The translations under genes were made by a program, and so were the position numbers. From Larinioides sclopetarius (Eukaryota), in the NCBI GenBank assembly GCA_964023285.1, contig CAXIEN010000102.1:2935528-2999527 (forward strand): a DNA stretch of 64,000 nucleotides. Reading direction: 5' to 3'. Below the pieces are notes generated by a model, which did no database searches, was not told where the DNA came from, and was given only the letters and a program-made list of their open reading frames with translations. Each line of letters starts with the position of its first letter. Within the stretch, counting starts at the first letter, position 1. Positions 820 through 44,836 of the stretch are shown in pieces.

Positions 820-1049
820 ATAAACTATTATGATTCCGCCATCGAAAAGCTTTCTTCTATATAATTATATCAGTGAGATGCATCAGCCTGTACATATAAC
901 GCTTATTTTTATTTAAACGTAAACCATTTTAATAAACAGCATCGCATTTTTTTCTTATATTTTAAGCAGTATTGAAGCTATGCTTTATTATAGAAACAAA
1001 GAAATGCTTATAACATGCATGCAAATTGAATCGAAGTAACCTCATATAG

Positions 1050-1081
<32 letters not shown>

Positions 1082-1565
1082 GTATTAAATTTTATGCAAC
1101 ATCGAAACTGAGAAATACTAATCACAAATATTGCGAAATTTCGCAAGATTTATGACAAAAACGGAATAGCAGCACCGCCTGTTGAGCGATTTGAACCAGA
1201 CTCCAATCAGCATTAACTTATGTTAGGGTTAAACTAAATAAAAATTTTCATGAAATTCTTCCCATTAGTTTTTCTTCTAGAGCGGCCACAAAATTTCGCA
1301 AAAATTGTGAAAAAACAAACAAGCAGATAGCAGCGCCGCCTTTCAGACGATCTGCACCAAAATCTAATCAGTGTTAATTTTTGTTAACACGCTACTATAT
1401 ATAAAAATGTATGCAATTCTGTCCAGTACTTTTTGCTCTAGCGTGGCTACAAAATTTGTGTCACACACACCCCAAAACGTATAAAAAACCATTAGAAAAG
1501 GCAGTCGAAAATTTTCACGATTCCAACACTTTCTTCTTATATACACATAGAAGGAAGTAAAAGGG
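820..1565 (+). repeat. Dispersed repeat, copy 1, with an internal ~160-bp minisatellite of 2 units (about 1140..1465).
   Basis: Collinear similarity to 8610..9725, covering the flanks and the units containing (G)GAATAGCAGCGCCACCTGT. Confidence 0.7.
1057..1079. repeat. (TA)n microsatellite.
   Basis: Uninterrupted TA dinucleotide run. Confidence 0.9.
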
Positions 1566-3087
1566 AAACAGAATCGCTTCCAATTGATTTTAAATTGAAT
1601 ATTAACGAGAAAAAAAATTGTGTGTTTTTTAGCAAAATTATCTGCTATTAATATTATTATTATGTAGAAGTCTTAACAAAATTGCCTGGAATTAAAATTC
1701 AATTAGAATTAAATGCAACAGAACAACATGTGAATTTAAAAAATATACATTAATTTAAACTTAAGAAGATAGAGCGGAACATTCTGATACGTTGGTTATT
1801 TGAAAAGAATAAAAAAAAAAATTGCCGAAATCAGTTCGTTTTAGAGCTCAGGTACACGGTACTGTTTTGAAAATAAATATCCGTTACTACTGTTAATATA
1901 TATTCAGCTTATATTTAAATCTCTCTCCAAAATTGAATGTCAGACGACCACGGATAACATATCTAGATATATTAGCTTTAATTTGTAATAAGTATCACAT
2001 TTCGTCAGATGCTTATTTCTGGCGAACTTTCCATATTTTTCAAAAATAGAAAACGCATAGTGAGAAAGAGTTTTTTCGATTTGATCCTTGACAAATAGAT
2101 GTCACACACTTTCTATGAAATAAAAATTATCGAAATCGATTGAGGCCGGCGACTCGGGAAAATTTTTACCAAATTATAAAACCTTATATCAATTCGCCCT
2201 CCTCACGATTTTTGGAATACTTTTTTCAATTGAAAGGTTATGACGTCTATATGTCGGCAAAGATCGGTGTCCACTCAACTTTCGCCAGTTTCGAATGAAA
2301 TCGGAATAAACATTTATAAAACATATGTCGGAAGAGTTTTTTTTTTCATATCGTTCGAAAATGGGAGGTTGATGGGCGTAAGTTGACCTTTGGCAATATA
2401 TCTAGATGTCATAAGCTTTCAATTAAAAGAAAAAAAAAACGAAATCGGACGCTGGTTGAGACTCATTTAAGGTTTTATGTCCGAATTATTTCAAGGATAT
2501 AGATACCATATGAATATCAGATCTTAAAATGAATTTATTTCAGGAATGAGATTGTCGCAATATTCTCAAAAATTTAGTACCAGAAATCAAAGTCTAGAAA
2601 GTTTATTAAAATATTCCAAAGACAAATTAATAATTCACTTTTAATCAGAAGCAACCTTATGCCTTGTGGGGCCCAATTGGCAATTATTTTTAGTTTATTA
2701 CTTTTTTAATCATCAAAAGATTTAGAGCAAAGAAAAAATCTCAGCACGCGCGATTGCCTCCTTAACATTCTCATTTACTAACAGAAATCTTCGCATTTGG
2801 AGCTTTGTACTACAATGAAAAGAAAATCGAGTTTGCATTTTGGATGTCTTACTTCGGGCCATCTGGTATCAAAATTTATTACATATCTATAAATTTGATA
2901 AATAGGCAATATACAAAATTTTTAACATATTTGTAATTTCGATGAATAGACAATATACAAAACATGTGAAATATTAGAGAGTATACAAAATTTCAACGAT
3001 ATAGCTTGTTGGGTTTTGAGTTGTAGTGTACCGTTCTATACCCCCAAAACGACAGAAAGTCATCTCTTTAATGGACATCTCCTAACA

Positions 3088-3104
3088 CACACACACACAC
3101 ACAT
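3088..3104. repeat. (CA)n microsatellite.
   Basis: acacacacacacacac. Confidence 0.85.
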
Positions 3105-6100
3105 TTGATACAAATCCACAAATCTGAGAATATAATTAAATATTGAATTTAATTCTTTCTTAATTATTGTGTTCACATGGAAGGGCTAGGCAGATAGACT
3201 TCCTATTGACGGATTTCACATCTAAAATCTTAAAGAAATCTGCAATTTTAGTAGTATTATAACTAGATGCTAAATTTCATTCTTCTATCTCCTGAGTTAT
3301 GATGTTTACAAATTCATGGAAAAATTTAATAAAAAAGTGTTTCTATGTTATTTTATTTATTTTTTTATTCAGGGAAACTTAAGAGAGGGAATTTTATCAA
3401 ACTCTCGAATTTTCTCGTAATTACGATATTTTCTCTTTCCAAACGATAAAACCTCCGTTGAATTTTAATTATGAAATATAATAAAATTTTTAAATTTTAA
3501 TTTAAAGTGCTGAAATTGGATAAATTCTGCTAAGAATACTAAATTCACTGACTTTCTTGGAGAGACTTAAAAGAAAAAAGGAACATAATTACAAAAAAGT
3601 TTCGCCTGCGTGATTATTTCTATGCAATACAATACCTATTTTTTCAGTTGCATTAATATACACATTTAGAAAGCGATTATATCAAAAGGATTATTCATTA
3701 AAAAATGCTTGGTAATATTTTTTTTTATTTCTAGTGTACTTCTTGGAATAAAAAAGTTCCAAAGGCGGAACATAATCTTTCAACTATGTTCCGTCATCTA
3801 TTCCTTAAAATAGAACGTCATCCGACGTTATCTTAATATTTATGCGTTCAGAGACATTTCATTCTCACTAACAAAAATCGTCGAAATTTCAGTTGAAGAT
3901 CTTATATCAATTATTATATGTAAGAGGGTATATATGCTTCTCGAAGATATAAAATTTGATGTACGGATTTCGCATTTATGCAAATCAGAAACTGAGTTCA
4001 TAAAAAAGCAGCAGAAATATATTTATTTTTTAAGTAATTTTTGAATAGCAAATAGAAAATGTACTATTATGTGATAATTGGCAACTTCATAACTACAAGT
4101 CGGTATAGTTAAAATAAATTAATTATGTCTAAACTCAGTTCAAAATTAACATAATATGTGAGTAAATTTCGATGATGACAATTAATTCATTTTCATTTTA
4201 GAATATTTAAAAAATTGAGTATTGAATGCCATGCAACTTAGAAATCTAGAAAAGGCACGTTTTTCTTTCCAGTATAAAGAGTCGTTTAAATATAAATTAC
4301 CGGCCAGAAATAAATATAAATGAGTTAAATTATGACTGTAGAATTTTAAAACTCCATAATTTTTATATAAAACTTATGCATATTATTTAAAATACAAGTA
4401 GAGTAAACATCAATGCTTGCTAATTAAAATGGAAAACAATGTCCTGACTGTACAGTGGAGTGGAAGTTTGGAGAATGGTGTCCAACTTTAATATACAAAA
4501 GTATAGCTTTAATATACAATTTTTCCAACTTTTAATATACAAGTACAAATAAATGCTGCTTAAAAATTGGAAATTTATTTAATATAAAACAACAGTATAA
4601 AAAATAGTAGTCCTCGGCTAAGTTTGAAACTACATCATTGACGTTCTTTTATCTAGAACTTTCGATTATTTTTGTGATAAATTCTGGAACTATTAACTGA
4701 ATCTCAAGTAGAATTTTAAATAAGCTCGGTTAAGAAGCTTTCCATATCATAGATTTCTGCTTTGTGTGTGTTTTATAAAAATAAACTTCAATTAATACAT
4801 AGAGAGAGAAGGAGTAAATGTGTGTGTGTAGTGAAATGTTTATAAATATACATAATATAAAAAAATTATAATTACTAATATTAATGTAACTAATCGTTCT
4901 TTTTCTTGTATCGGATGTATATTTGCACAGAGAAGAATGTGTCCGTTTCTGTTATGTTTATTTGAACGCATAATATTCTCAGTAGCTTATTTCCCCCCTT
5001 CAAGATAGAGTTAATCTAATTTCCAGGACAAGTTACGCAATTCTATTATTGTGTTGCAAAACATTTATTTCCTTTTCTTTTAAATATAGTACCGCGCGTA
5101 CCCAAGAAAAATCCCCACTTTCTAAATAATAAATAGCGCGTTTTTATTTTTTAATATTTCGTCACAACTTTGAAGAAGAGATGTGATTATTGGTTTCTGC
5201 AAAGAAAAATTATGTAAATAGCTATAAATGCTAGAATAACTCCCAATTAAATAGTTTTGCATACATTATATTTAATAAAATCATCATATAACTTATTTAA
5301 AATTAAACCAATAAATTTATTATTGATGAGAATTACCAAGTGTAAAGAGAAATGAGATAGACTTATGTTCTTTGTATCATGTACGAGTGCTGTTGATTGT
5401 AACCGCCCTACCAAGCAAGGAACTGCTAAAAAAGAATTGCATTAAAAGTTAATTAAAAAAACTAATACTGTTTCAACTAAGAATTAAAAAGAAAATGAAA
5501 GAGCACTTTTACGCGTTTTCTCAAGTAAGTAAAAAACTTTTTTTTATTGTCCGAGGGCTAGGTTTCCTATGGCCCTTTTTAATTTTTCTTGAACATCTGA
5601 AAAACTCTTCTCTTTTCACACTACATGTTTATAAAAAATAAATAGTCAACAATTCCCTACAGTTTCCAGCTTTCATTTTTCTTCAAGTTTTTAACATTTT
5701 TGGAGATAATGTTTCTTAACTAGTTTTTCGTTTTCAGTAATTTACAACCCCCGAACCGCTAAAACCGGAGTGATATTACTTTAAAAAAAACTTTTTACAA
5801 TATTCATTCAAGCAATTTCAATGGTTGAAACATTATTTTTGATTAACCTTTAATTGTTTCTAACAATTCTCGGACGTCCTGAATTTTTGCTGATTAAACG
5901 TCGTTTGGGACCCTATGTCCTACGGTAATTTTCATACTCTTGATACCTACTATCACTTCTTAAAGTTTTGACCATCTTTTATGAAACACCCTGTATATAA
6001 ATTACTGGAGTATTGTCGTGGCTTTAAAGCTTTGTCGTCAATAGTAAATACTGATGTGTGAGCGTTGATTATCCGAATTTCAACTATTTTAAATTACAAT

Positions 6101-8609
6101 TATAGACACTCTTTCTCTTTAAAATTTCTAATAACAGCTACAAGTCTTATGTCTGGAGAAAGGACCAGGTAAAATTGTCCATATAACAATATATATTTTA
6201 AATCTACCTATAAGCTAATACATTTGATAAAAACAGTCGTCGGTATAGTCGGGAACATCCTTTAATTTTTCGGTGAATAATTCTGAACTATAGCCGATTC
6301 CGAGTGGTAAAAATAGTCGATGCTCTACTATAAAATTAGATTGATTAAATGTTCTTTAAGAAATTTTTCGGAAAAGTTTCAAATTAATTCACAATATATG
6401 CTGCTATTATTTTCTCATTTTGTTTTTGACAATTTCGGGCCCCCTCTATTTTTTTATTAAATTATTTGTTTGGCCCCGAGAGATTTTATTTGTTTTTTTT
6501 AAGAAAACAATTTACATTTATTAATAGTCAAAATTGTTAGAATCATTCTCAAATATAATTTGGCATAAATTATATTAATCAAATCATATTTTATTTAAAA
6601 TTAAATCAAGAAATTTATCATTGATGATAATTACCATAGATATAAACTAATTTATATAGATATATATACGCCACTTTTTCTGTGCGCTCTTCCAAGTCAG
6701 AAACCTACTTTTCCCCTTTCCTTTCCTCTTGCAGAAACTATACAATAAAAGTTCAATTCCTGTCCATCCGGTTATACCCTTCGAGGTCACGTTTCTACTC
6801 CTTGTAGCCGAACTCATTTCGGGGAAAAAGGGGGCGAGTTTCTTTGAACATGGGTGCGCACATTATAAACATATAAGATGCTGCGCATAAGGGTTACCAT
6901 AATTCCAAGACAAAATACAGATTTTAAATAAATTTTGCAGTTTTTTCCTTTAACAAAACGTTTTATTCTTTGAAAACTTTTCATATACACTTATCTTCCT
7001 CAAAAATAAACAATTTTAACTCTAATTGCAATATTTCTGTGCAACGCTATAACTGATTGGCATTTAGCGCCATCTGTTGTAGCCGCTGCAAAATTCAGTT
7101 AAAGAAATTTCGTGTTGACTTCCTGTTAATTTGAGATTTAAAAAAAAATATTAAGACCATTTTGAATAATTTGGAGTTTCATACGTTAATTATGGCGATA
7201 TGTTGGACCATTTTACTAAAATTATGTGCTTTAATTCTTCGTATTAACGGTACTGATATGTTTTTTGTAAAATATATGCTGTAGACATCCAGCTTAACTG
7301 AAAAGAAGTGAAAAATACCAAATGAGAGTTGCGCCAAGTTGTTCCTGCCAACTTTGATTTTGCATCATTCCTAATGGTCTTTCACCTCAATAACTCATCA
7401 AGCTAGAAAAATTAAATTTTCACTGATCAATGAAATCTCATTCATTCCACTTAAAAACTTTGTTATACACAGATAATTTGCTAAAAAGAATTTTTAAATT
7501 AGGTTATAAACACTAGAAATAAACAAAAAATGACTTAATAATAAACTTATTGACTTTAACAAGTGTTGATAACTTTAATTTTCACTCAGAAACACTTCAT
7601 TTGCAACAGTTTCTTGAAACTCCAAGTCCCCTTAAATTGGTGACAAATTCTATTACAGGGTGACTACAGAAGCTGTGAAAAAAATTTTCCTGATTCACGG
7701 CTACCAAATACATTAGTTTCCTGGCTTTCTTCCTGCTCAGAATCACTATATATGCATAATCAAAAACAATTTTACCAGTTATTTAATATGAAAAAATAAT
7801 GTATTGTTATACAATTTAATTTTTTTAAAAATTGGAATGAACACACCTAAAAAATTATTATATAAAACAGTATATTACATTTCTTACTTATAAAAAGTAC
7901 TGGAAATTTTAAGAAAATACTTTGTTTCTAAAACTGTATAAGAACTCAATGAATCCTGCATAGTTTTTATTGAAAAATTTAAAATCTCTATATTTTTTAA
8001 TTTTAAATAAATAATTTGAATGCTTATTTCTGTATTAAAGTCTAAAGATTTTTTTTTCAATGTCTAAAAAATTTCACCATGCAACTTTAATTTCAATCAA
8101 AAAATTAAAAAGCGTAATATCCCCTATGAATCAATGTCTTTGTGTTTCTTTTATCTTTAATAGTTTCCAAGGTAATTTAATCTCAAAATTTCCATTATCT
8201 TTGTATTTATTCTCCTTATTTTGTTTTTCATAAATATCTGAAAAACTACTGAAACGAAAAAACAAAAGTACGTTACTTATGAAAAGTTCCATTATAATTA
8301 ATTTGTTGTATAACATGTAAATGAAAACTAAATAGTTATGGGGATACTTAAGAAAAAAAAACTAAATTGGTGGATAAATCTAAAATGGCAGCAAAATTTA
8401 AGACCAATTATCTTGGAAAGTATTAAAGCTGCAAGAAAAATAAAAGCATTTATTTTTAAGGAATTTCAAGCCTTTTAAATTGTTAAATCTACTGTAATTT
8501 TAAAACAAAATAGTATTGAAGAAAGATTAAAAAGGAGGTTGAAATTCAAGATGGCATTGCGAGCTCCCAAACCAAAGAGATTTCAGTATGTTCACCTCAA
8601 AACCCCTCA

Positions 8610-9725
8610 TTAAATTAGTATGATGTGGCCATCACAAAACTTTCTTTTGTATAATTATATAATTGGGATTCATCAGAATCTATAGATATAATGCTTATTT
8701 TTATCCAAAACAAAAAATATTGATAAACTGCAAAATATTTTAAAGCAATGTTGCAGCTATGCTTTTTATCATAGAAATAGAGAAGTGCTTATAACATGCC
8801 TGAAATTCGAATCAAAGCAACTTCATATAGTATAATCTCCTGCATTAAATTTTATGCAATTTCAAAACCGTGATATACTAATAAAAAACATTGTAAAATT
8901 TCGGAAAATTTATGAAAAAAACACAGAATACAAGCGCCACCTGTTGTGCGATTCGCACCAAACTCCAAGCAGCATCAATTTGTGTTAGGATAAACATAAA
9001 GTTTTGTGAAAATCTGCCAATTAGTTTTTCCCCTAAAGCAGCCAAAAATTTTGCAGATTTGTGAAAAAGAAATGGAATAGCAGCACCATCTGTCTAACGA
9101 TCTGCACCCAAATCTAATTGTTAATTAATCGTCAAGCATTAATTCTCTACTAAATATACAATTTTATGAAAATCTATTTATTAGTCTTTGTTCTAAAGCA
9201 GATACAAAATTTCTCAAATCGTGGAAAAGAAACGGAATAGCAGCGCCACCTGTAGAGCAATCCGCACTCAATTCTAATCAGCGCCAAATAATGTTAAAAA
9301 GCAACTAAATATAAAATTTCATGAAATTCTGCCCAGTACATCTTGCGCTAGCACAGCCACAAAAATTATGGAAAAAAACCTGAATAGCAGTGCCACCTGT
9401 GACCTGCATTAAATAAAATCAGTGTTAATTTTTGTTATGATGCTCCTCAATATAAATTATTTTGAAATCCTATTTATTTGTTTTTGTTCTAGAGCAAATA
9501 CAAAATTTCTCAAAAATCATAATAAAACGAGAGTAGCAGCGTTACCTGTTGAGCGATCCACATCAAAATCTAATCAGTACCAATTCATGTTATGATACAA
9601 CTAAATATAAAATTTTGACCAGTATTTTTTGCGCTAGCTCCGCCACAAAATTTGTATCACACAGTAGAAAATTTTCGTGCTTCCAATACTTTCCTCATAT
9701 ATACAAATAAAAGAAAGTAAAAAGA
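8610..9725 (+). repeat. Dispersed repeat, copy 2, with an internal minisatellite of ~5 units of ~150-170 bp (about 8900..9665).
   Basis: Each unit has a conserved core: AATAGCAGCGCCACCTGT / AATAGCAGCACCATCTGT / AATAGCAGTGCCACCTGT / AGTAGCAGCGTTACCTGT. 5' and 3' flanks match copy 1 at 820..1140 and 1465..1565. Confidence 0.7.
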
Positions 9726-14982: not shown

Positions 14983-16045
14983 CTAAGATATATATATCAT
15001 AAATGTAAGAAATCAAAAGATAATTACACATTTATGAAAAAAATATGGGGAGGGGAAGAAAGCACAAAAGAAGTCATATAAAAGACTTCACACAGAAGTC
15101 ATGACATCAAAGAAGAGATTACAATGATTATTGTAGCAACAGATAAAAATAAAACAATAGGTGAGAAAAAATAAACATTGCCTTCCAAACCTTTTATTGG
15201 AATTAAATCAACTCATCTTTCACATAAACATTTAAATATTTTTTTAAAATTTGAAGACATTCAAACAAAAACTTTTGAAAATATCTGAAAGCAAGTAAAT
15301 TTTTATTTATTGCTTTAAAAAAATGAATACAAACATTTAAAAAATTATTCATGAACCTTTTTTTATTTAAATACGAAATGAAGTTTTTTTTTAGTTTTAT
15401 GCTAAATTAAATAATTTGAAAGCATTTTTCAGGGTCAGAATTTAACCAAATACATTTTAGCACCTATCACATTTATAGCCTATAAGAATCTTCATATCTA
15501 AAAAAAATGTTAGATTAAGACGATAGTATCTAGAATGAAAAATATATTTAACATCTAAAATAGACATTAGGGAGAGGAAAGGGGAGGTGGGAAGCCATCA
15601 AACAACATTTAAAATAGAAAAATGAAAAGAATACATTCATCAGAGAAAAGAACCAAATTCAAAATTTTTGAAAAAATAAAAGCTAAAAAAATTATTCCAG
15701 GATCTTGTGCAAGAATCAGGACAGTTATTAAAAAAATGTGCTTTTCTCCCATATTTTTAAAACCAAAGTTGGATTTAATTTTTGAACAAGAATATTTAGA
15801 CATTTGGTTATTTTGACCCGATCGGGAAAAAAAGAAGAGTGGGTGAGAATGTGTGCTAGAAAAAGTTATAAAAGACTAAAAGCATTTTTTGAAAAAAAAG
15901 CAATTAATCTTTTTTAATCTATATTTTCATGAATATAAAAATTTTAAACATATTTTTTCCCCAACTCCTTATAAATAAATAACAAATAATAATAAAAATG
16001 AAGTTTGGAATATGAAGTTATAAAGAAATAAAAGAGAAAACATAC

Positions 16046-16289
16046 AGCTTCAATCTTCATAGCTTCTGCCTTTGATCTTGCTTGCTCAACAGCAGCTTCA
16101 GCTTCAATTCTTTGAGCCTCTGCTCGACTCAAAGCTTCTGCTTTGGCTTGACCACAGTTCTCTATTGACATGCTGCTCACTTTTAGCTCAAGTAGACTCT
16201 TTCTTTCTTTCTCAGCTTCAACTTCATCAGATATTTTCTGACGCTCCAGTCGCCCACGAGCTTCCTGCTCCCTTCGCTCAGCCTCATGC
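16046..16289 (-). CDS. MVP: MVP coding exon 12 ((R)[81 protein letters not shown]). Cap-helix coiled coil.
   Basis: Acceptor tgtacag, donor GTATGT. Aligns to [81 protein letters not shown]. Confidence 0.85.
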
Positions 16290-16330
16290 CTGTACACATA
16301 AATAAAATTTATCGTTTTTTGATCACTAAA

Positions 16331-17060
16331 TACAGTACGACGCCGGTAATCCGGATTTTAGGTTATTGACTAATCGCTAAATACGTTAATTTACATAAAA
16401 AATTCATTTTTATTACTATTTAAAAGCATATATTAATTTTACCATATAATTTTATTCTGTTTGAATTTCAATGAAAAATCTGGAATTTTGTATGGAACAT
16501 ACATAATGTTGTTATCAGATAAACACAGTCTATAAATATTTTTCAGCTGCCTCATGGAATGAATTATTTTAAGTGATACGAAGACTAAAATTCCATAGAA
16601 GGGTGATTGCAGCTTCGCGCCTAGCATCGGCGATAACGACACCACGAACCTCCACGCGTAAAGAGCTAATCAACGCTGTGCTTTAAAGCGACAGTCGCTT
16701 AAAGGGGACAAAAAAAAAATGTTCTCGGTAATTTTGGAATTTAAAATTAGAAAATAAGGTCACATTTTAGAGAAATTATGGTTTGAGTAAATATTTTAAG
16801 TGAAATCACTTGCAAGTCAAGTAATATGAAACAAATGAAAAGAGCCGAAACAAAAGCATAAGGTGTATTGGAAAGCACTTCTTCAAGTTAGATTTCTGGC
16901 GCAAACGTCTGTGATTCGTTTCTAGCAGCATTTACACCACCGTCAATTTGAGGTCGAACAAAGTATAGCAGTCGAAAAAAATTCTTTTAGACGAAACAAT
17001 TTTTTATTAAAATGGCCGAAATGGTTTCTTTGGAGTTCGGATTATCAGCATTGTACCGTA
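16331..17060. mobile_element. ~730-bp non-autonomous element with ~28-bp terminal inverted repeats (TACAGTACGACGCCGGTAATCCGG ... CGGATTATCAGCATTGTACCGTA), in the intron between MVP exons 11 and 12.
   Basis: Its two ends are mutual reverse complements. A diverged copy at 19523..20270 lies in the opposite orientation. Confidence 0.65.
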
Positions 17061-20270: not shown

Positions 20271-22199
20271 TCCTAATGGTTCTGCACACACAATATTTTC
20301 ATTAATTTATCATTAAAAGAAGATATATTCTGAGTTATGCCATAATTCTTATAAGAAGGGAGTGAATGTTCAGACATATATCTTGTATGAAAGCTTCAAA
20401 TCAAAAAAGAAAGAGAAATTTTTCCACTTTTAGAACTCGAGCAGAAAAGGGTAAATCATGATGTCAAAAAATGCAGAGTTATTAATTTTGAGCACACGAT
20501 TCTCTCATTATGAATTCTCTTACTAACAAGTAAATTAAAAATGGACAATTAAAAATCTTTAGCACAAGAAATAAAACATGCAGCTAAAGAAAAGGAATTA
20601 TAAATTAGAATTTAAAGTAAAATTAAATGGGGTTATTAAATATATGTATGTTTATAAATCTGAAAAGGATCACTTTCTTTTTAAAAACAATGAAAAAAAT
20701 GATAATGTGAAGGCAATGAATTAATATGAAGTAGGCCATGAAAAGAATACTTAAAAGCATAATACTTATATGTATAAAGCTAGAAAAATTTAATTGTAAA
20801 ATTAATCAAATTTAATTCCTTAAAATTGAAAAAAAAAACCCATAGTATTAAAATAGAAGTTTTTGAAAAGAAAGTCAATGTTGGCTGTTATGTTAATATA
20901 ATTATAATTAAAACAATTTAAATTAATTTTTAAAACTAAATATGTTGATATTACCACCTTATAAAATATGTAAGAATTTTTACAATTATAACGCTAAGAC
21001 AATGAATTCTTTGAGTTTCTTCTTTTCAGAATTCAGTTTTTGAATTCTTTTCAGTTTCTTATTTCCTGTTGCAATTAATGCCTGTGCCGCTGGAAATGAC
21101 TTTCTTATCAAAGATGTTTGGTTCCCTCTTCTATAAGTTGGTAGGCAAAATCAACATTATCTTATAAAGAAAGCAATTCATTTTGGATAGTCTTTTGCAC
21201 ATATTTTAGTACCTTATTTACATTGTCGAGCTTGTTTTCCTTTGACTCACTTCCTAGCCATTCAGCTTTGTGTTCTGAGTGTGCTTCTCTATAAAAATGT
21301 ATAGCCCCCCTTTGTAATAACAATCTCAATAATATTTTCTATCCTAATACTGTCGTTAATCAGTCTCAAACCAACGATGGTGGTCTGATCCATTATTCTT
21401 GACCTGTCACTCATCATCCTTTTGTTGACAGAAAATCCCCTTTCTAGTGCTTGTCCATGAGAAAGATAATACCTCTTTTTCCTTATGTTTAAGTCATTTA
21501 ACATTTCTCAAATATGCATCAATTTTTTTCCCACTGCTATACATATTCTTCAAGTTGTTTTTCAACTCTCCACTTCTCTTTTATAACCTCATCAGAAATA
21601 TTAATTGTGATGGAGTTAACAAAGATTGTTAGTGAGAATTCAAAAGAGCAAGCAGAAGCAAAATATGCGGCAACTCTGAAGAGAAAAGAAAGGAGGAATC
21701 ATGCTTCACCTACTGTATCATACTTGAGCAGGGAAAAAAGTGTGCGCTATATATTATCAAAGATTGAATGGAAAGGGAAAATAAAATATATGACAAATAA
21801 CTCTTTTTTTTTAATTATAGGACATTTAAAAAAAATGTTCTAAAATATTGGAATTATAGGACAGCTGAATATCTTTTACCTAATTATAATTTTGGAATGC
21901 TTCAGTTAAATGGTATTTCTCTAAGTACTCCAAACCAGCGTTAATTAGAACCCATATTTTTTTTCACATACCAGAATCGAGATGATATATGCATGATGCA
22001 CTGCCTACCAAAAGTATCAGAGTCAAATCTCACACAATACAAAATATTTGGTAATAAATCTACCTCAGTGACTTAATTTTGATTGTTCTTTCATATCAAA
22101 TGAGAGGTTCAAACTTTCCATTGGTGAAAATGTGTAGAAATTGGCATCATACTATGTCGCGGCGCAATGAATGGTCTGAATGATTCTGATACTTTTTCC

Positions 22200-24650
22200 T
22201 GTAACTTCAGTATAAAGGAAAACAGATGAATCTGCATTGCTTGGGATCCAAATTTTAAAATTTTCCCGACTCTAATTTAAATACGAATGAAGTAATATGT
22301 ACCGCATACATAAACTCTTGAAGTATCAAGGATCTTCTCAAACATTTTTATCAAAAGACCTATTCGAGCATTTTATTTATCTTTTTTTTGCATCAGCAAT
22401 CACCAAAATCTTAACACCAAACCATCTACATCGCATTGTTGCATTATTCAGACTTCCATATTACATTCTTGGAGATTTCAACAGTGAATGAGAAATAGGC
22501 TATGGAATACTTGTTTTAAGAATCAAAATGGTTCGAATTTTGCTGCGACAGTGAAACAAATTGTTTTAAAGTATACCAAAAAATAAAAAAGTATTATAAA
22601 TTAGTTTTCCATTGATAATTTTTTTGATAATTGAAACTTTGGAATCTAAATGATCGAAATGGCTTCCTTGGATTGTTCCGCATATTTTGGTACTTTCCGC
22701 AGGCTTTGTGAGAAGATATTGCCACATACATACAATCAGATTTTAATAGTGTTGACTAGCTAGATGGCCCAGCATTGAACGGGCAATCTAGAGCAATGTC
22801 ACTCTGGTTAAATTATTATTTTTATTTAGCCAGAGTGACAGTAAGAAATGATGTAATGTGTTATATGTCCAGCATTCTCTTCTCAATTTGAATGTGATCT
22901 TTTCCATAATGGTATATTATACTCTAACTTTCGTTAGTCTCCTACCGGGTCACGCTGGCTATTTGTGTGGCCCGGCGCACTCAGCCCCCATTAAATAAAC
23001 TTATAAACTGCAAGAACAGCGAAGTGAACTTTTAAAAATGGAGAGAAAAGAAAAGGTCTTTGTGCTCAAGAGATGGCAACACAGTTTATTCATTACTTTT
23101 CATGTTTTTAATTAATATCTTCTTAATTTGTTATAATTTTTAACCTTAAATGGCCCGACTGCATGGCCGATCTTGAATTGCTCCCACCCAGCACTATACC
23201 GTGTCATTGCAAACTGAATTTTCTATCCGATTCCTATCTTGCTTTAATTCGAAGGGAATAAGATGAATCTATGTTGGTCGGAATCTATCTTTGTTATTTT
23301 GCCCGCCTCTAGTTTATATAAGCACGGAGCAAGATATGATGCATACATAAACTCTCAAAGTGTCAGGGAATCTCTAAGAAAACTTTTTAGTAAAAATCCT
23401 ATTCGAACGATTTAATTCTTCCTGTTTCTTTGTAACAATTTCCAAATCCCAAACCCGAAGCTATCCACATCGTATTGTTGCATTGTTCAGATTTATATAT
23501 TTCTTGGAAGTTTCAACAGTAAAACAGAAAGACACAATTGAATATTAGTTTCAACAATTAAAACAGTTCGAATTGTGGGGCAATAAGAAAACTATTGTTA
23601 TAAAGTGTCCAAAAAATTAATGGTAATGCTGTAAATTAGTTTTCCATCAATTAATTTTATGCTAATAAAATTTCGTTATGTAAATGGCTCCCTTTGATCG
23701 CTCAGCGTATTTTGGTACTTTCCCCGTGTTTCTCTGTTTGACGGTTCATGAAAAGATAGTGCCACATACAGACATACAATCATATTTTAAATAACATAGA
23801 CGAGGTACCCTAAATTTTTACTACAGGTCAGGGAGAGGATTTTAATGGCTTTAAACCTCTCCTGGACAACACATAACATTTTGCAAGAAACCGCATGTAA
23901 ATCGGTTCAGTAGTTTTTTTAGTTTTGGGAGAACACACATACTAACATAGTCTTTAATGTAATAAACCTGATTATTCCCGGCATAAATTATGAATCATCT
24001 GCATTTATCTTATCTTTTGTTGTTTTTCCAAAATTTTATATGTTCTAGCCACACTCTTATACACATTTCTTGTTCTTCATAATAAAAACTAAATTGATAC
24101 AAATTGAATTAAAAAAAAATTAACTTTTAAATCATTGCAAGTTGGCAGCATTCTTTTACTTCTTGAATAAAATAAATTTAAAAAAATGTTTAAATTATTA
24201 TTGTTGCTTAGCAACAAAATATGTTTACAAATGCTTTTATTTCAAAATAGTTTGCAATTAATCATTTTATTCAAAATTTTTAAATAATCAATAAAATTTG
24301 AAACACTGCACAGAAATGAAACTGATGTTATTGGAAAGAAAATTTTTTTATCTTTAAGATTGTATAAAAATATTTGTCGGACAATTTGCACAGAAGTTAT
24401 AGCGGACAAACTGTTTCGATTAATTTCTAATAAACTGATAGGACAAATTGTGCAGTTAATTAGATTTTCATTAATAACTTTTTTGATAATTAAAATTTTG
24501 TAATCTAAATAGTCGAAATGGCTTCCTTGGGTCTTTCTGCATATTTTGGTACCTTCCGCACATTTCTCCATTCGGCGGTTTGTGAGAATATAGCGCTACA
24601 CATATACATACATACAATCAGATTTTAATGGTGTAGATGTCCAAGACATC
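22200..24650. repeat. Three copies of a ~550-bp repeat at ~1.04-kb spacing (22200..22745, 23237..23790, partial 24440..24650), in the intron between MVP exons 10 and 11.
   Basis: Collinear similarity between copies. Shared blocks: GATGAATCT..GCATACATAAACTCT, CATCGCATTGTTGCATT.TTCAGA, TTCAACAGT.AA, AAATGGCTTCCTTGG..CATATTTTGGTAC.TTCCGC..CCACATACA.ACATACAATCA.ATTTTAA. Confidence 0.6.
22749..22925. repeat. Short dispersed SINE/MITE-like repeat, copy 2, with an internal hairpin insert (GTCACTCTGGTTAA...TTAGCCAGAGTGAC).
   Basis: Shares TGTTGACTAGCTAGATGGCCCAGCATTGAACGGGCAATCT and the downstream GTAAGAAATGA..TGTCCAGCATTCTCTTCTCAATTTGAATGT with copy 1. Confidence 0.55.
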
Positions 24651-28675: not shown

Positions 28676-31069
28676 CTAGAGAAATAATTAATAATCAGAA
28701 AATCTTCAATAAAATAAGAATTTTGTTGCAATTAAATGAATAAATTCTTTATATATAAAATAGCTCTAGAGAAACATGTTCATATTAACTATTAAAAAAT
28801 ATCACTATTTTTTATTACAGACTGTAATAATTTACAAGATAGTCTTTTTCAAAAAAATTTCATGCGAATTGCAAAGATTTTAGAAATATAAAATTTGTAA
28901 AAGGCTACCTTATTACTACAAAGGGCTGAAAGTATATTACCATGATTTGATTTTAAATTTAACCCTTTCGGACGCCGCCCCTTCAATGAAGACCTTCCCA
29001 CAGGATGGAACAGAGGAGAAAAGAACTGTCCCGCAGGCTGGGTGTTTTACGTAGCTAAGCCTAACTTCAGAAAAAAAAATCACACACAAAAAAAGTTTAA
29101 GTCCTAATGCTGTAATTTTTGGTACCATTTTATATTATTACATAATCTGTAATTTCCGTTAAAATAAGCATTGAATACTTATTTTTTTGATTTTATATGA
29201 AAACAAAAAAATGTGCAATACTTGGAGAAATAATTTTCGGGAGCAAGTAATTTCAAAAGGCAAAACACATAAATAAACATTTAGATTAATAAAAAAATAC
29301 AGCAAAACCCATTTACAAAAAAAAAAAAAAAGGAAATTAAAACCGAGTGCAGTCAACCTAGTAACAGCGTGAAACATAAATCCCTACATTGCATGAAATG
29401 CACAAGCATAAAACGTTTATTTTATTTTCAGAAAATAATGTATCACTCTCAATCATGTAACTAATTGGTTCATTTATTATACAAGTATATTTTTCCTGAT
29501 AATTATCGCTTTGCCGCCATAATAAATCCGAGTCAAGGCTTTCCGGAAAAAAGAAAAGTACACAATATACATAACAAAAGCAAAGAAATGTGTAACTGCA
29601 CTGACAGTAGAACCTAGAAGTATACCGAGAGATAGAGAAATGCGAAACATGTACTGAGTGAAACATTCAAACCCCTCTGTTTACATTATGTTTACCCCCC
29701 CCCCTTTCCAGCAACAGCTGATGAGAACATCCCAAATATAGGCAGAATATGAAAGGACTGAAGGTCAGATTCCGATAATTATGTTTAGTTCAAAATAAAT
29801 GGACACAGGGAGCCAACTAGTGGTCTTTTAAAATTGTTCCAGCTAAAAATGTATATATGCATCGCACGGCTTCAGATACAAGATAGCTAATGATGCATAT
29901 GTGCATCATCCGTCTCCAAAAGGTTAAACAGCTAATATAGGGATAAAAGGTTGTTGCTTTGCTACCAAAAATCTTGGTTTTGGAAATTGATGATTTATTT
30001 TCTTAATAATTGATAGAAAAATTAATGTTAATTTAAATTTTTTTTTAAAGTAATACATATAATTATTTCCTATTACTACCAGAAACACAACTTTATTGCA
30101 AGAGGGAGTGGCGATTTCAAAAGAATCAACATCATTCCTGTGGGCTGATGAGTGGAGCGCACAGAAGGTGCAATTAAATATATAAATATAATTTATTTTT
30201 AGAATCATTTTTTAACTAATTATTTTTCTTTTATTTTTGCAACTCTTATTGATCTATTTTTATGCACTTTCAGGATTTCCTTTGACATTTTAATTTATAT
30301 TCACATACAATAACTGTAAGACATACAATGTCTTCATTGTAGCTATGGGGGCACAGGCCTTATGCTTTTATGTAAAAAAATAGGGGTGGCCAAGGCCATG
30401 TTTTTTAACTTGGCAACAGTGCAATTAATATAAGCAATATAACTCTTTTTTTGCACAACACTTAAATATTTAAAATACCCTTCTCTCACTTATCCAACTT
30501 TATAAATGAAATGTATTTATGTGGGAGAAAGCAGGATTTGCTGAAACGATGGAAACAGAGGAGAAAAAGTGGTTCAAAATTGCCTAACCTTGAGATACCT
30601 ATTTTAAATACACAGATTATAGTATGTATTAAAATATATTATTGTATATTAAATTGTGCAATTTGAATGCTTTGGCACAGCATTCAGATTGCACAATTTC
30701 AGTAAAAAGAACGAATATAAAAAAAACTCCCATTTACTTGTCATTTAAATCTGGATCTAACACAATCGCATACACGAGTAGAAAAATTTGATAGCATTTC
30801 AAATTACTGTTTAATTGAAATTCATTATTTAAATCACCAAAAATCGCCATTTATAAAAAATCTTGACTCAAGGAACAAAACTCTTAAATATTGTACCACA
30901 TATTTTCTTGGTAAATTAAATGGAAAAAAAAATCCCAGTCAGCAGGGGCAGAAGGCAAAGGTAGATTTCATACAATTGAAGATATTAAGAAAGGAACATA
31001 ACATGCTGAATTTTCATTATTATTGGAACTACAAGAATTAAAAAAGATGCAAGAGACTGCAAATAAAAA

Positions 31070-31880
31070 GAGCTTTGAAACAAGGTGCTACATTCATAGG
31101 TTGAAATATAATTTTAATTTGAGAAAGGGAAGGAAACTACAATACAGCTCAAACTTCTAAACAATTGCAATTGTTGAGAAATTTTTAAAGGAAAAGTGGT
31201 AGTTGTGATAAGATGCTAATTCGCCTGATTTGAAATTTCTTTCTATTTTTAGCTGTAAAGGAATTATGAAAAAAAAAATGAGAACTTTCACACCCCCCTT
31301 TTTCTCCTATTTTCATTCCATTTGAGCTAAATAGACCATCTATGAACTCGACCAAGATTTTTACTATCCTTGCAACAATTTCTTGCAGTCTGCAATCTAT
31401 TCAAAGTAACTCAAACTATCATGTTCTCAAGATAACAGGAGCAAAGTTTTAAGCCTGTCGATATAAGAAAATGAACATTTCACCCTCTAATCTCTAACTG
31501 ATTAGAAATGCAAGAATGAAAATGGGTAGAAGTAGTTTTAAATGACATGGGTAGAAGTAGTTTTTTGGTAGTTGCAAATGACAAGAGCTTTCCAATGAGG
31601 GGTAACATGTATAGGTTGAAAGGCAATTTAAGCTATGGGGAAGGGTGGGAAAATTACTTTTTAGCGCATAACTTTTAAACAATTGCAGCTATCAAAAAGT
31701 TTAAATACAAAAGTTGTTTGTTATGCTAAGACGCTAATTCGCTTAATTGGAATTTTCTTTCTATTTTCAATTGTAAAGGAATTATTGGAAATTTAAAATT
31801 TTCACCCTCTACCATTTCCACCCCCTTTGAGCTGGATAGCCCATCTACGAACTGGACCGAGATTTTTACTGTCTTTACCT
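31070..31880. repeat. Tandem duplication, 2 units of ~515 bp.
   Basis: 31070..31380 matches 31586..31880 (AGCTTT..ATAGGTTGAAA..AAACAATTGCA..GCTAATTCGC..TTTCTTTCTATTTT..TGTAAAGGAATTAT..TTGAGCT..ATAG.CCATCTA.GAACT.GACC.AGATTTTTACT). Confidence 0.65.
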
Positions 31881-32991
31881 CATCTCCAAATTTAAATGAA
31901 AATTACTTCAGTTATCGTGTTCACAAAAATAACATGGAAAACAGCGTTATAAATATATATATGTATAAACTTTTTAACGGAGGGTGGTTTGGGGCTCTAG
32001 GGGTCATGATCGGTAAAGATATGCAAAATTTTTCTGGAAGTCGCGTCATGAGAACCTTTGCAATAGGTAGATTTTTCCTATAAGGAATCTACCTAAAAGA
32101 AAAGAAAAAAAAAAGGAAAATAGACTGCAAATCCCTATTTTGAAATGATAATGAAAACTTCAGACCTAATACAGTCTTGGAACAAAAAGAAAAAAAAAAA
32201 GAAGAGTTAACTTGAAAATTAATAAATCGTACTAATCAAATACCGAAAAGTTAAATGGTCACGATTAAGTGAACAATAAAATAAATGATACAAGTATTTG
32301 AGATATATTAAAATATTAAAGAATAATTATATTAAAGAAAATAAAGAATAAAATCTGATGTCAAGAATGCAGAAATGTCTCATGACTGAAACTACTGCTT
32401 CTCAAAACCTACTAGGTTATTATGCAAAAAAGTGTATTTACATTAGAAGAATATTCAAAGGTATGAATTCAAGGGATCCTACAGAAAACTGCTCAGCTGA
32501 TGGCAGTTATAAAGGTATTTAACTTTCTTTACCTTTTAAGGTATTAACTGCTATTCAGGTTATAAAATATCAACAATTTTAAAAATATAATTATGGAGCA
32601 CCATGAAAAAACAGAATTCAGATTAAATGAAAAATTTAGCAAACTGACCTTAGAATATTCTTAGAAATTCAGAAAGTTGTATTTTGTAGCCTTCTAATTT
32701 AAGTAGAAAAATAATCGTATTTTTTCATAGCTCATTTATCTTTACTTTGACATCTTTGAAATTTCACGAAAATGTTCATAAAATGATAACTTGAATCACC
32801 TATGGGTCAATAGACAAGTTGGAAATATGCAAGATTTTAAATCGGAAATCAGAATCCAATTTGGGTATATATCCATTTCCTTTGGGCTCAATTACAATAA
32901 ATATAAATAAAAGGGATATAGTATCAAGTATGATTTCAAACACAGTCAAATTTAGAAAGTACTGACTTTACTAGTATCACAATATACTTAC

Positions 32992-37421: not shown

Positions 37422-37822
37422 GGTACAGCTGGGATATACGGCACCCAAGGCGCCTTGGCGAGATTTGGTTTCATTGGCGACTTTTCGCGTTTGCGTCTAT
37501 CGCGCGTTTTGAAACGCAATCCGCCATTTTGAAGATCGAGCTTTCCATTTCTGGGCAATAAAAAAACTAATTGCCTAACAGTTAATGTAAAAGCGAAGCT
37601 ACGAGGGAGCTGCTTTCCCGAAAGCGAAGCCGCCGATGTTTTTTTAAGTAAAAAAAATTGCCCGGAACGCGTAGAACATAATGTTTACTTCAAGAACTTT
37701 TCTTCATAAGAAACTATACGTAACCGCCATCTTGAATAACGATTATAACTCGCCAGCCGCCATGTTTATTTACATTGAAACGTCACCAAATCGTCGTGGG
37801 TGCCGTATATCCCAGCTGTTCC
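37422..37822. mobile_element. MITE-like non-autonomous DNA transposon (401 bp), with ~25-bp terminal inverted repeats GGTACAGCTGGGATATACGGCACCCAA and a perfect 8-bp target-site duplication CTTCTTAG. Sits in MVP intron 5.
   Basis: The termini are reverse complements of each other. Identical 8-mers flank the element at 37414..37421 and 37823..37830. A second copy lies at 52830..53204. Confidence 0.8.
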
Positions 37823-41299: not shown

Positions 41300-41597
41300 T
41301 ATTATATTCTTTCTATAATTCTGGCAACGCAATACATTGATTACTATTTCTTTTTAACTTATGGCAAAGTAACAAAAATATAAATAGAATTCTACTTTCC
41401 TTTCAACGTTGCAATAGGTAATGTTCTTGTTTAGTTGCTTAATATATCAAATCACGTATCAAGGGAAATGAATATTATTTGTTTGTAAATATGTAAATAC
41501 TTTAAAATGCGTGGAATAATAAATGTATTATTATAAGTTCCGGCATCACATTTTTCGTATCGCATCGATACGCGCCTGCCACCTCAGAAACATAACA
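41300..41597 (+). repeat. 5' LTR of the retrotransposon.
   Basis: ~98% identical to 45906..46196 (about 4 substitutions, an 8-bp and a 1-bp indel). Ends ...AACATAACA. Confidence 0.8.
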
Positions 41598-41601
41598 GTT
41601 T

Positions 41602-41612
41602 TGGCGACAAGG
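41602..41612 (+). other. Putative tRNA primer-binding site (TGGCGACAAGG), 4 nt downstream of the 5' LTR.
   Basis: Starts with TGG, complementary to a tRNA 3' CCA end, in the canonical position. The tRNA species was not identified. Confidence 0.4.
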
Positions 41613-41659
41613 TAAAGTTCTTTTTCTATCAATTTTTCATCGAATATTGTTTTGATATT

Positions 41660-42529
41660 TTGTATTTCATGATGGATGCCGAACAATTTAAAATATTGCT
41701 GCAGGCAATGAATCAAAATAAACAACAGCTGTTAGAGCGATTATTATCAAAAGATAAAACAGAATCGTTTGCGTCTAAAGAAACTTCTGTTATTAACATA
41801 GCTCATATTCCACCATTTGAAAATTTTGATCCTAAGAAAGAGAAATTTAAATATTATAAGCAACGTTTCGAAAATTACTTATTGATGAAAGATGTTTTTC
41901 AAGATAAAGATAAATGTGCACATATATTACTTAATTCTATTGGTGCATCGAATTACAACATCTTGGCGTCTTTAATTGCGCCAAAACCGCCAAACAAATT
42001 GCCGTATGATGATCTCATGAAAGTTCTAGAAAATCATTTGGCGTCAAAGCGCAGCTGTTTAGTTTCCCAGCATTACTTTTTGTCGACTTATCAAAAAGAA
42101 GATAGTTCAATTTCTGATTATGTGGCTGATTTGCAATGTTATATTGCGGATTGTGAATTTTCAGTTACTTGTGAATGTAGCAAAAATGTATCGGTTGCTG
42201 ATATTTTTCTAAGAGCGCAATTTATTCGAGGTATCAAAGACGGTTGGATTAAAGAACAACTCTTACAATCTGAATTAACTGATTTCAATGCACTTGTTGA
42301 TAAAGCTATTGCGCTTGAAACTTCAAAAATAGATGGTCATGAATTATCAAAATCGACTACAACCACCATCGATGGTATAAACAAAGTTTCTAAGCGTAGT
42401 CGCAATCGCCAATCTAATGATATAAAAACCTCTTTCAGAAATCGAAATACAAATCAGAGAGACTTCGCAACAAATTACCGAAGGAAAAGTAAGAAACTCT
42501 CTCGATTTCGAGAAACTTGGAATAAATAA
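41660..42529 (+). CDS. Retrotransposon gag ORF (289 aa), intact, ending at TAA.
   Basis: First long ORF after the 5' LTR and primer-binding site. The following pol frame is +1 relative to gag and is open across the gag stop. Confidence 0.7.
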   Translation: MYFMMDAEQFKILLQAMNQNKQQLLERLLSKDKTESFASKETSVINIAHIPPFENFDPKKEKFKYYKQRFENYLLMKDVFQDKDKCAHILLNSIGASNYNILASLIAPKPPNKLPYDDLMKVLENHLASKRSCLVSQHYFLSTYQKEDSSISDYVADLQCYIADCEFSVTCECSKNVSVADIFLRAQFIRGIKDGWIKEQLLQSELTDFNALVDKAIALETSKIDGHELSKSTTTTIDGINKVSKRSRNRQSNDIKTSFRNRNTNQRDFATNYRRKSKKLSRFRETWNK

Positions 42530-42530
42530 T

Positions 42531-43127
42531 TTGTGCCTGTGTTGCGGACACAATTCTCATTTATCAAGAGACTGTCAATCAAATCCCAACAACTTGAAAT
42601 GTAAAGTTTGCAAATCTACAGATTATGTACAAAAGGTTTGCATCAAAACATTATTAAAAGCTCATAGATCAAACAGTCTTACACAAGAAACAAATTATTT
42701 GAAAACTTATCAAGACATTAGTGTAAATACGATCATTGATAACCGTAATTCAGGATCTTCAGTAGATTCAACGAAATATTTTATTTATGTCAAAATAGAA
42801 AATTGTTTTCAAAAGTTTGAGGTTGACACAGGTGCAGCTTATACGCTCATACCGAATGATCAGTTTCAAAAATTAGGTATAAAAAGACAGCTTGAACCAA
42901 TGAGAATCGCATTTCGATCCTATACTGAAAATGTATTTGTACCACTAGGAAAAGTGCAAGTTAAAGTGGAACACAAGGGTCAAATATCAAATGAAGATTT
43001 GTATGTAGTGCCTGATGGATTTGAACCTTTATTAGGAAGAATCTGGATTAGACATTTAAAAATCAATCTGAATGAAATAGATCAAAACATTGAGGGCAAA
43101 ATTAAATTGGAAGTATTTTCGATCTAA
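42531..43127 (+). pseudogene. pol part 1: CCHC zinc knuckle and aspartic protease, ending at an in-frame TAA (43125..43127). It is in the same frame as the RT ORF.
   Basis: CLCCGHNSHLSRDC knuckle. FEVDTGAAYTLIP protease active site. LLGRIWI. Confidence 0.75.
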
Positions 43128-43184
43128 AACATTTCTGATATTGAAAGGCATTTTCCACAGGTATTCGAACAAAAAGTAGGTTGT

Positions 43185-43990
43185 GTGCCTAATTTTACTA
43201 TCAATTTAAAACTACGTAACGGAGCTAAACCTAGTTACACTCCATCTCGGAATGTACCCTATGCTTTAAGGGAACAAGTTAACAAGGAACTGGATTCTCT
43301 CAAAGCAGCTGGAATTATTTCCAAGTCAGTTACTAGTGATTGGGGATCACCTTTAGTTGTGATTCCAAAAGGAGACGGAACTCTTCGACTTTGCGTAGAT
43401 TACAAAGTTGGAGTTAATGATCTACTTATGAACGTCAACTATCCAATAAAGAAAATCGATGAAGTTTTGAACAATCTTAGAGATTCAAAGTATTTCTGCA
43501 AGCTGGATTTATTTAAGGCATATCTTAATTTACAGACCGATGAAGAGAGTAGTATTATCCAAACGATTTCAACACATCGAGGAACTTATAAAATGAATAG
43601 GCTGAGTTTCGGCATTAAAATGGCTCCGGCTGAATTTAATAGATTAATTGATCAAATTCTAAATGGTTTGCCAAACACTATAGCTTATTTCGATGATATT
43701 GTGGTTCATGGTGAAACTAAAAATCAGTGTGCTAAGAACCTCTTTGCTTGTCTCGAAAGACTACGCGAATATGATTTGCATTTGAACATCAAGAAATGCA
43801 CATTTTTTCAAACAAAGATTGAATATCTAGGTCATGTAATTGAAAACAACAAAATATCAAGATCACCCTCAAAAGTGGAAGCTATTGTACAATTGCCCCA
43901 ACCAAGAAATGTCAAAGAACTTCGACATTTTTTAGGTATGGTTGCTTACTACTCGAGATTCATACCAGATGTTTCTACGATTACCTTTAT
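43185..43990 (+). pseudogene. pol part 2: reverse transcriptase.
   Basis: LRLCVDYKVGVN, YFCKLDLFKAYLNLQ, IAYFDDIVVHG, LGHVIE. A frameshift (~1 bp) near 43985 separates it from the RNase H frame. Confidence 0.8.
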
Positions 43991-44794: not shown

Positions 44795-44836
44795 CCCTAT
44801 TGTATATGGAAGAATATCGACAAAGATATAGAAACT

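Follow-up and report, generated by a model that had tools for sequence, protein, structure and literature searches.

The 64-kb window, that is, the whole stretch of DNA analysed here, is eukaryotic, repeat-rich and about 30% GC throughout, and it contains three copies of a dispersed non-coding element built around a short array of tandem units. [quoted passage not shown] A 2013 survey did not find MVP in arthropods (PMC3762200), and the gene was later reported in copepods; a host with MVP is unlikely to be an insect and might still lie outside the bilaterians. The copies of the element are placed as follows.

821 to about 1565, plus strand: copy A, with two full units, delimited by homology with copy B (ends good to a few nucleotides)
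8611 to about 9725, plus strand: copy B, with five units, delimited by homology with copy A
about 48372 to 49030, minus strand: copy C, a relative of greater age and stronger decay (left boundary uncertain)
48416 to 48381, minus strand: right-hand tail of copy C, CGATTCCA...TAGAAGAAAA, shared with copies A and B

Homology between the two plus-strand copies, A and B, runs from TAAAYTA to GTAAAARRG; over 652 aligned columns they are 70.7% identical, with 76-85% identity in the non-repeat flanks. The sequence-only reading had described two copies with common flanks and 2 versus about 5 internal units, and a unit profile confirms this, with two units in copy A and five in copy B. Copy C, a minus-strand locus that had been missed by that reading, contains about three units and a partial one (two good and one partial by profile HMM) and carries the same right-hand tail, CGATTCCA...TATATA...AGAAGAAAA, as copies A and B. 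Its left flank gave no convincing alignment to copy A or B and is either unrelated or unrecognisable; a candidate left repeat of copy C, GTTTCTTCTGA, lies near 49335 and is not relied on here. A search of the 64-kb window with the unit profile HMM found no further copy, and there is no ORF of substance inside copies A and B or between them.

A profile HMM built from the units and searched across the 64-kb window delimited the arrays, their units and the GC-rich core within each unit.

1135-1449, plus strand: central array of copy A (nhmmer E=8e-41 and 1.5e-37)
1135-1288, plus strand: unit A1, core at 1164-1182
1290-1449, plus strand: unit A2, core at 1325-1343
8895 to about 9645, plus strand: central array of copy B, units B1-B5 (nhmmer E=1e-35 to 3e-30)
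8895-9044, plus strand: unit B1, core at 8926-8944
9047-9203, plus strand: unit B2, core at 9075-9093
9206-9358, plus strand: unit B3, core at 9235-9253
9360-9498, plus strand: unit B4, core at 9382-9400
9502-9644, plus strand: unit B5, core at 9531-9549
48888-48746, 48658-48526 and, in part, 48975-48884, minus strand: units of copy C by the unit profile, core at 48860-48842
1044-1078, plus strand: left-flank microsatellite of copy A, (AT)17 (TRF)

The units of copy B cover 8895-9644, and the minisatellite span of 8900-9665 proposed from the letters alone was right, because B1-B5 were located there by the profile. Units of copies A and B are 147-161 bp long, with a core-to-core spacing of 161 bp in copy A and of 149, 160, 147 and 149 bp in copy B. 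The array of copy B shows a partial higher-order period of two units (296 bp), in which 9147-9319 and 9443-9615 are 76% identical, compared with 62% in the adjacent register. In the A/B alignment, the (AT)17 microsatellite of copy A is missing at the homologous position of copy B. The observed/expected CpG ratio of the arrays is 1.08 in copy A, 0.84 in copy B and 0.61 in copy C.

In addition to the arrays, copies A and B carry short repeats and potential hairpins close to their ends.

850-862, plus strand: left subterminal repeat of copy A, CTTTCTTCTATAT, complementary to 1547-1557
1529-1557, plus strand: right-end hairpin of copy A, CTTTCTTCT at 1529-1537, an 11-nt loop and AGAAGGAAG at 1549-1557 (sequence reading and MFE fold)
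8639-8648, plus strand: left subterminal repeat of copy B, ACTTTCTTTT, perfect complement of 9709-9718
9688-9718, plus strand: remnant of the right-end hairpin of copy B, ACTTTCCTCA at 9688-9697, a loop and AAAAGAAAGT at 9709-9718 (MFE fold)
8621-8634, plus strand: palindrome TGATG-TGGC-CATCA of copy B, between the left terminus and the left subterminal repeat (predicted 5-bp stem)

In copy A the motif CTTTCTTCTAT (850-860), which lies 29 nt inside the left boundary, pairs with 1547-1557 at 10 of 11 positions, a match that is not significant alone (shuffle P=0.13). The right arm of the copy A hairpin (1549-1557) is the inverted partner of 850-862 and ends 8 nt from the right boundary. The subterminal inverted repeat of copy B matches at 10 of 10 positions (shuffle P=0.02, with the terminal 70 nt compared), and the copies differ at position 8 of the motif, where the two arms both carry C in copy A and T in copy B, amounting to one compensated difference. 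The right-end hairpin is present in the MFE DNA folds of both copies with an energy indistinguishable from that of shuffles (z=-1.2 for copy A), while the left-terminus palindrome is degenerate in copy A, where no stable hairpin is predicted. These terminal repeats are short (9-13 nt) and of low complexity, and the evidence that they provide is modest.

The composite structure of flanks, subterminal repeats, central array and hairpin is as in DINE-1 and the HINEs of mites and oysters; therefore, the element is filed as HINE-like, a putative member of the group whose structure it fits. Our preferred reading, held with slightly better than even confidence, is that of a non-autonomous, non-coding transposable element of the Helentron-associated (HINE) type, with a short satellite-like array at its centre. 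The pattern described for HINEs comprises subterminal inverted repeats of 11-15 nt, a complementary repeat 1-22 nt off, tandem repeats in the centre along with a microsatellite, and, close to the opposite end, a stem-loop (PMC4067079, PMC7492417). In oyster HINEs, the monomers are mostly 140-180 bp long, the arrays mostly contain at most five monomers, subterminal inverted repeats of 11-12 bp are accompanied by an inverted repeat of 7-12 bp located 1-12 bp away, and divergent monomer families have common conserved boxes (PMC7492417). Measured against this pattern, copies A and B both have subterminal inverted repeats (10/11 and 10/10, for an expected length of about 11-15 nt), both have a complementary inverted repeat within 1-22 nt of the subterminal one, and the element combines a variable central array with a microsatellite, the microsatellite part being weak and seen in copy A only. 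Orientation relative to the HINE convention is ambiguous: the spacing of the inverted repeat agrees with the reverse direction, but the microsatellite and the array follow each other as expected in the forward direction.

The likeness to the bivalve elements Cg_HINE, pearl, DTC84 and MgE extends to short dispersed arrays of about 140-180-bp monomers between family-specific flanks, subterminal inverted repeats of about 11-12 nt with a complementary repeat nearby, a microsatellite between flank and array, a hairpin in the flank beyond the array, conserved boxes across divergent monomers, and a constant orientation of the array relative to the flanks (PMC7492417). However, the few oyster monomers from the supplement of that paper that were compared, non-systematically, have no sequence similarity to the unit, and the oyster microsatellite motifs are mostly 4 nt long (GTCY-type; PMC7492417), whereas here the motif is (AT)n and is found in one copy only. 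With DINE-1/INE-1 of Drosophila and HINE-Mo of mites, the element has in common a subterminal inverted repeat, an inverted repeat 3-22 bp off, variable central repeats, and a second subterminal repeat followed by a short stem-loop; those elements, too, are non-coding, and they are abundant (PMC4067079). It differs from DINE-1 in lacking the DINE-1 core sequence and in the position of the microsatellite: when the element is oriented to suit the inverted-repeat spacing best, its microsatellite falls on the other side of the array compared with DINE-1. The subterminal repeats also lie at other distances from the termini, 8-9 nt and about 29 nt here and 2-4 nt and 38-60 nt in mites (PMC4067079).

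No obvious target duplication was found beside copy A or B, whose boundaries are uncertain by a few nucleotides, and T-richness at these positions means little at 30% GC. The 64-kb window contains no autonomous Helentron ORF (Rep, helicase or endonuclease). Canonical Helitrons have a 5' TC, a 3' CTRR and a 16-20-nt hairpin about 11 nt from the 3' end, and insert between A and T. A canonical Helitron was rejected, as the ends of copies A and B are not CTRR in either orientation and their hairpins are 5-9 bp rather than 16-20 nt.

In the HINE-like reading, a short pyrimidine motif CTTTCTTYT near one end has its inverted partner near the other end, and a second complementary copy 11 nt from that partner makes a small hairpin with it. 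We infer that the element would propagate by rolling-circle (copy-and-paste) transposition, with a Helentron protein supplied in trans. The copies differ in unit number (2, 5 and about 3), presumably because units were duplicated or lost within the element lineage, and the 296-bp two-unit duplication of copy B may have arisen by unequal exchange or replication slippage. The element is a known kind of thing, namely one more family of tandem-repeat-carrying non-autonomous elements and a matter of ordinary repeat annotation; such elements are already known as a main vehicle for the spread of satellite-like DNA in invertebrate euchromatin.

The most distinctive part of the unit is its GC-rich core. 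The core 19-mer GAATAGCAGCGCCACCTGT occurs seven times at no more than three mismatches, compared with 0.00 occurrences expected from shuffles, and the eighth core, in unit A2, has four mismatches to it. When the seven units of copies A and B are aligned, no other 19-nt window is conserved as well as the core, whose mean pairwise identity is 0.80 versus 0.63 for the whole unit. The G/C columns have an identity of 0.75 within the core and 0.50 elsewhere (post hoc Mann-Whitney p=2.6e-4), and those of the core are well kept despite its CpG, in a window with a CpG observed/expected ratio of 0.60 and an excess of TG/CA. Only one of the ten units (B3) has a perfect core; the 16 departures from the core consensus in units A1 to C1 comprise 13 transitions and 3 transversions, and four of the core's changes fall on its single CpG. 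The sequence-only reading had described units that are diverged except for the core, and the core does emerge as the best-conserved window; nevertheless, the description is overstated, because other blocks reach 0.70-0.73 (CTAAATATAAAATTT at 0.73, TCTGCACCAAAATCTAAT and CCATTAGTTTTTGCTCTAG at 0.70 each) and shuffled columns yield a best window of equal or higher identity in 6.7% of trials (P≈0.07).

The level at which conservation acted can be approached by comparing units that correspond in position between copies A and B with units that do not, although the corresponding units make up two pairs only. In the pair A1-B1, both being first units, the core is 0.79 and the rest 0.80 identical; in the pair A2-B5, both being last units followed by TTTGTRTCACAC, the core is 0.63 and the rest 0.73 identical. 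In contrast, non-corresponding units (for example, B2, B3 and B4 compared with each other or with A1) have a core identity of 0.84-0.95 and an identity of 0.56-0.63 in the rest of the unit. This contrast points to some constraint on the core rather than pure drift, as far as these few units go. In corresponding pairs, the core fares no better than the remainder of the unit; it is perfect in one of ten units and decays mostly through transitions, some of them at its CpG, all of which suggests that the constraint acted on the propagating element and not on the individual loci. The core would thus have been held uniform while the element lineage was active, and we infer that all parts of the copies, the core included, have decayed neutrally since insertion. 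Such neutral decay argues against present host-level selection at these loci, and it was probably the element, not the host, that profited from the GC-rich core. In the active element, a nearly constant core might have served it as, for example, a site for a DNA-binding protein or a sequence needed to maintain the array; after insertion, each copy, with its core, would simply decay. Of the earlier proposal that the core is functional rather than neutral satellite sequence, the constraint is thus supported, and a present function in the host is not. A core kept within the element lineage and not after insertion allows selection on the transposon to be told apart from selection at the host locus. 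Should a genome-wide logo of the unit peak sharply over the core, the core would become a candidate recognition site for the Helentron machinery or for a host zinc-finger protein.

An account without any constraint, in which the core appears conserved through sampling and alignment effects, with GC-rich sequence aligning cleanly and AT-rich sequence misaligned through slippage indels, seems to us rather unlikely. The column-shuffle test at P=0.07 only, the three further blocks at 0.70-0.73, the post hoc choice of the core and a sample of nine units out of three related copies are all compatible with it. However, G/C columns outside the core reach 0.50 compared with 0.75 inside, even though the core holds the most mutable dinucleotide, CpG, and all non-corresponding unit pairs show the same contrast between core and rest. 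The alignment of the core is almost gap-free, yet that of the less conserved neighbouring columns is equally so.

A host function for the core was considered through its resemblance to the binding site of CTCF. In this explanation, the core would be a working site for host CTCF, for another multi-zinc-finger protein or for an E-box protein, and the arrays, with sites about one nucleosome apart, would act as insulators or regulatory modules. The core's likeness to CTCF sites, which the sequence-only reading had called loose, is better than that at the level of the consensus, as the reverse-orientation consensus TCAACAGGTGGCGCT matches the IUPAC consensus CCASYAGRKGGCRSY at 13 of 15 positions. 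In a scan with a CTCF matrix modelled on JASPAR MA0139.1, the cores of B1, C1 and B3 score 11.4, 11.0 and 10.6 bits of a possible 26 (P≈2-4e-5 with uniform composition and ≈5e-6 at the composition of the window), and together with a solitary core-like site they are the window's top four matches to the matrix.

7065-7083, minus strand: solitary core-like site, reading TAGCGCCATCTGTTGTAGC on the plus strand, with the joint highest CTCF-matrix score of the window

Also in favour of CTCF are the unusually well kept G/C columns of the core. CTCF is confined to bilaterians, where most examined species have it, and its zinc-finger cluster is conserved across them (PMC7021899). In the open chromatin of an annelid, no motif is more abundant than a CTCF motif of the vertebrate type (PMC7854359).

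Several observations stand against this explanation. Scores above 10 bits are reached by only three of the eight cores, and the other five score at most 4.8 bits, leaving the matrix scan suggested earlier with some cores among the window's best matches and most of them well below; the overall likeness is moderate. Conservation in the region is lowest (0.1-0.3) in the columns that match the informative CCA triplet, and the conserved block runs 8 nt the other way, into TGCTATTC, which lies outside the CTCF core, indicating that the conservation footprint is not that of a canonical CTCF site. Since insertion, the core has been kept no better than its surroundings in corresponding units, and it decays via CpG transitions. 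Cnidarians and sponges have MVP and are not known to have CTCF, so that the CTCF explanation would fail if the host were one of them. The E-box likeness put forward in the sequence-only reading comes down to the bare hexamer CACCTG and is uninformative. The evidence thus leans against the CTCF-like reading, and we regard a working host site as distinctly improbable.

The solitary site at 7065-7083 lies outside the recognisable copies, and its context is weakly similar to the unit (score 17.5 versus a null of 12.6±2.0, upper 2.5%); it may be either an old remnant of a unit or an independent occurrence of the motif. A bolder scenario, which we consider very doubtful, is that a Helentron-type transposon in a non-insect invertebrate has been seeding tandem, same-oriented sites for CTCF or another zinc-finger protein, about one nucleosome apart, throughout the genome. 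Sites seeded in this way might also lie near genes, as the solitary site hints. If true, this would be an invertebrate DNA-transposon counterpart to the SINE-borne expansions of CTCF sites in mammals. Mammalian SINE B2 and similar mobile elements multiply a CTCF motif genome-wide; they are pol III retroposons that carry one motif per element, with binding shown by ChIP. The analogy with SINE B2 is functional only, in that both would be mobile elements that spread a CTCF-like motif, whereas here the motif is tandem, only partly CTCF-like and a candidate site at most.

Hardly any credence can be given to the view that copies A and B represent the LTR pair of a single old LTR retrotransposon (or of a LARD or TRIM), or the two ends of a segmentally duplicated stretch. 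The U3 regions of LTRs often contain tandem repeats, and copies A and B lie on the same strand, 7.8 kb apart, a spacing typical of LTR elements. However, the interval between them (1566-8610) has no ORF of at least 110 aa, and its ten longest stop-free stretches (60-76 aa) have no Pfam domain; the ends are not TG...CA, no matching target duplication lies beside 821 and 9725, no collinear homology extends beyond the element, the third copy stands alone on the opposite strand, and the window's genuine LTR element looks quite different. The suggestion that the core is a pol III promoter box, with the units deriving from a pol III gene (a tRNA-, 5S- or 7SL-type SINE), is scarcely tenable, since a T-run within 5-12 nt after each core in the reverse orientation and the weak B-box-like strings GGTTCAAATCG and GGTGCGAATCG adjoining two cores are set against the lack of any tRNA (ARAGORN), of any Rfam match at gathering score (noise only at E<=10) and of any excess of A-box and B-box patterns in the window (42 versus 41.6 and 115 versus 116.5 expected), with a distance of about 25 nt from B-like string to T-run that is too long for a tRNA and with A-runs and T-runs that are ubiquitous at 30% GC.

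The Jeffreys minisatellite core GGAGGTGGGCAGGARG is chi-like, has been proposed to promote recombination, and belongs to units of 10-64 bp. Like a classical minisatellite, the arrays described here consist of tandem units with a GC-rich core containing AGGTGG; unlike one, they have units of about 150 bp, overlap with the minisatellite core over 6-7 nt only, and lie within a transposon.

Relatives were sought outside the window, and none turned up in the collections searched. An exact scan of metagenome contigs with the core 17-mer gave 79 loci, a degenerate core 19-mer gave 29 loci in prokaryotic genomes, and a scan of viral contigs for the core gave 8, all compatible with chance; when the whole unit was compared with those loci (BLAST, nhmmer), nothing was shared beyond the motif that had been searched. 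The sole tandem matches were in the marine metagenome contigs L040 and L063, from some eukaryote, where the 17-mer sits in a repeat of about 100 bp beside TTTAGGG telomere repeats; with nothing else shared this was set aside as coincidence. A pseudo-peptide alignment of the units had no match at E<=10 among 5.8 billion predicted proteins, and the core string appears in the literature in unrelated primers only. Within the window, other two-unit arrays with a period of about 150-160 bp are present at 58701-59004 and 59435-59739, which suggests that short arrays of this kind are common in the genome, as they are in oysters.

The element, a decaying non-coding repeat with a central array of ~150-160-bp units, has a third and older member in the window, copy C, which was absent from the list of the sequence-only reading.

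~48372-49030, - strand, copy C of the element

The units of copy C are degenerate and its left flank is unalignable, and its right-hand tail is the same as in the other copies. Near 49335, GTTTCTTCTGA is a candidate for the left repeat. Within the family, the CpG observed/expected ratio of the array falls from 1.08 in the two-unit copy A to 0.84 in the five-unit copy B and 0.61 in copy C. The window as a whole stands at 0.60, with TG (1.11) and CA (1.15) in excess, a pattern consistent with germline CpG methylation.

A structural feature lies at the beginning of copy A's array.

1122-1155, 34-nt near-palindrome (TCACAAATATTGCGAAA/TTTCGCAAGATTTATGA, 88%), exactly where the array begins

Similar half-palindromes, CACAAAATTT...AAATTGTG, occur at the unit junctions. 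The near-palindrome and the junction half-palindromes might be marks of duplication breakpoints; alternatively, both might be a mere effect of AT-rich composition. At its left boundary, copy A is abutted by a GC-rich block (590-800) with a 70-aa ORF at 591-803, and no second copy of this block was found within the window.

The GC-rich 19-mer core carried by each good unit also occurs at one site that belongs to no copy of the element (context 7000-7290).

7065-7083, - strand for the CTCF-like reading, solitary core TAGCGCCATCTGTTGTAGC, matching AGCGCCACCTGTTG at 13/14

The surrounding sequence resembles a unit only marginally (upper 2.5% of random windows). About 110 nt downstream of the solitary core, a short ORF opens with an ATG at 7192 (MAICWTILLKLCALILRING...); it resembles a signal peptide, and a possible GT splice donor comes after it.

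A scan with a 17-mer of the core also matched two marine metagenome contigs, L040 (60-400) and L063 (2460-2790), in which a ~100-bp tandem repeat adjoins (TG)n and TTTAGGG-type telomeric repeats and carries ATAGCAGYGCCACCTGT, the same as in the core, in every unit. Outside the searched 17-mer, this repeat shows no likeness to the element unit; the match was therefore judged to have arisen by chance in the scan of a large database.

Other features of the window comprise further repeats and a coding exon.

58701-59004, two-unit tandem duplication, period ~141-151 bp, 89.6% identity
59435-59739, two-unit tandem duplication, period ~158 bp, 77%
31058-31949, tandem pair, ~515-bp, 69%
22144-22762, 23191-23807 and 24451-24637, direct repeat, ~1-kb spacing, 67-76%
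37422-37822 and 53204-52830, inverted dispersed pair, 78.6%
16490-16909 and 20040-19623, inverted dispersed pair, 65%
15944-16297, - strand, exon for the C-terminal coiled-coil region of major vault protein
41300-46196, + strand, Ty3/gypsy LTR retrotransposon, 298-bp LTRs 95.7% identical

The first two duplications are unrelated in sequence to the element's units, and nucleosome-length units in short arrays seem common in this genome. The top database match of the vault protein exon is 85% identical. With this exon in its genome, the host is probably not an insect. In the Ty3/gypsy element, five frame-broken ORFs together carry gag-like, protease, RT, RNase H and integrase domains.
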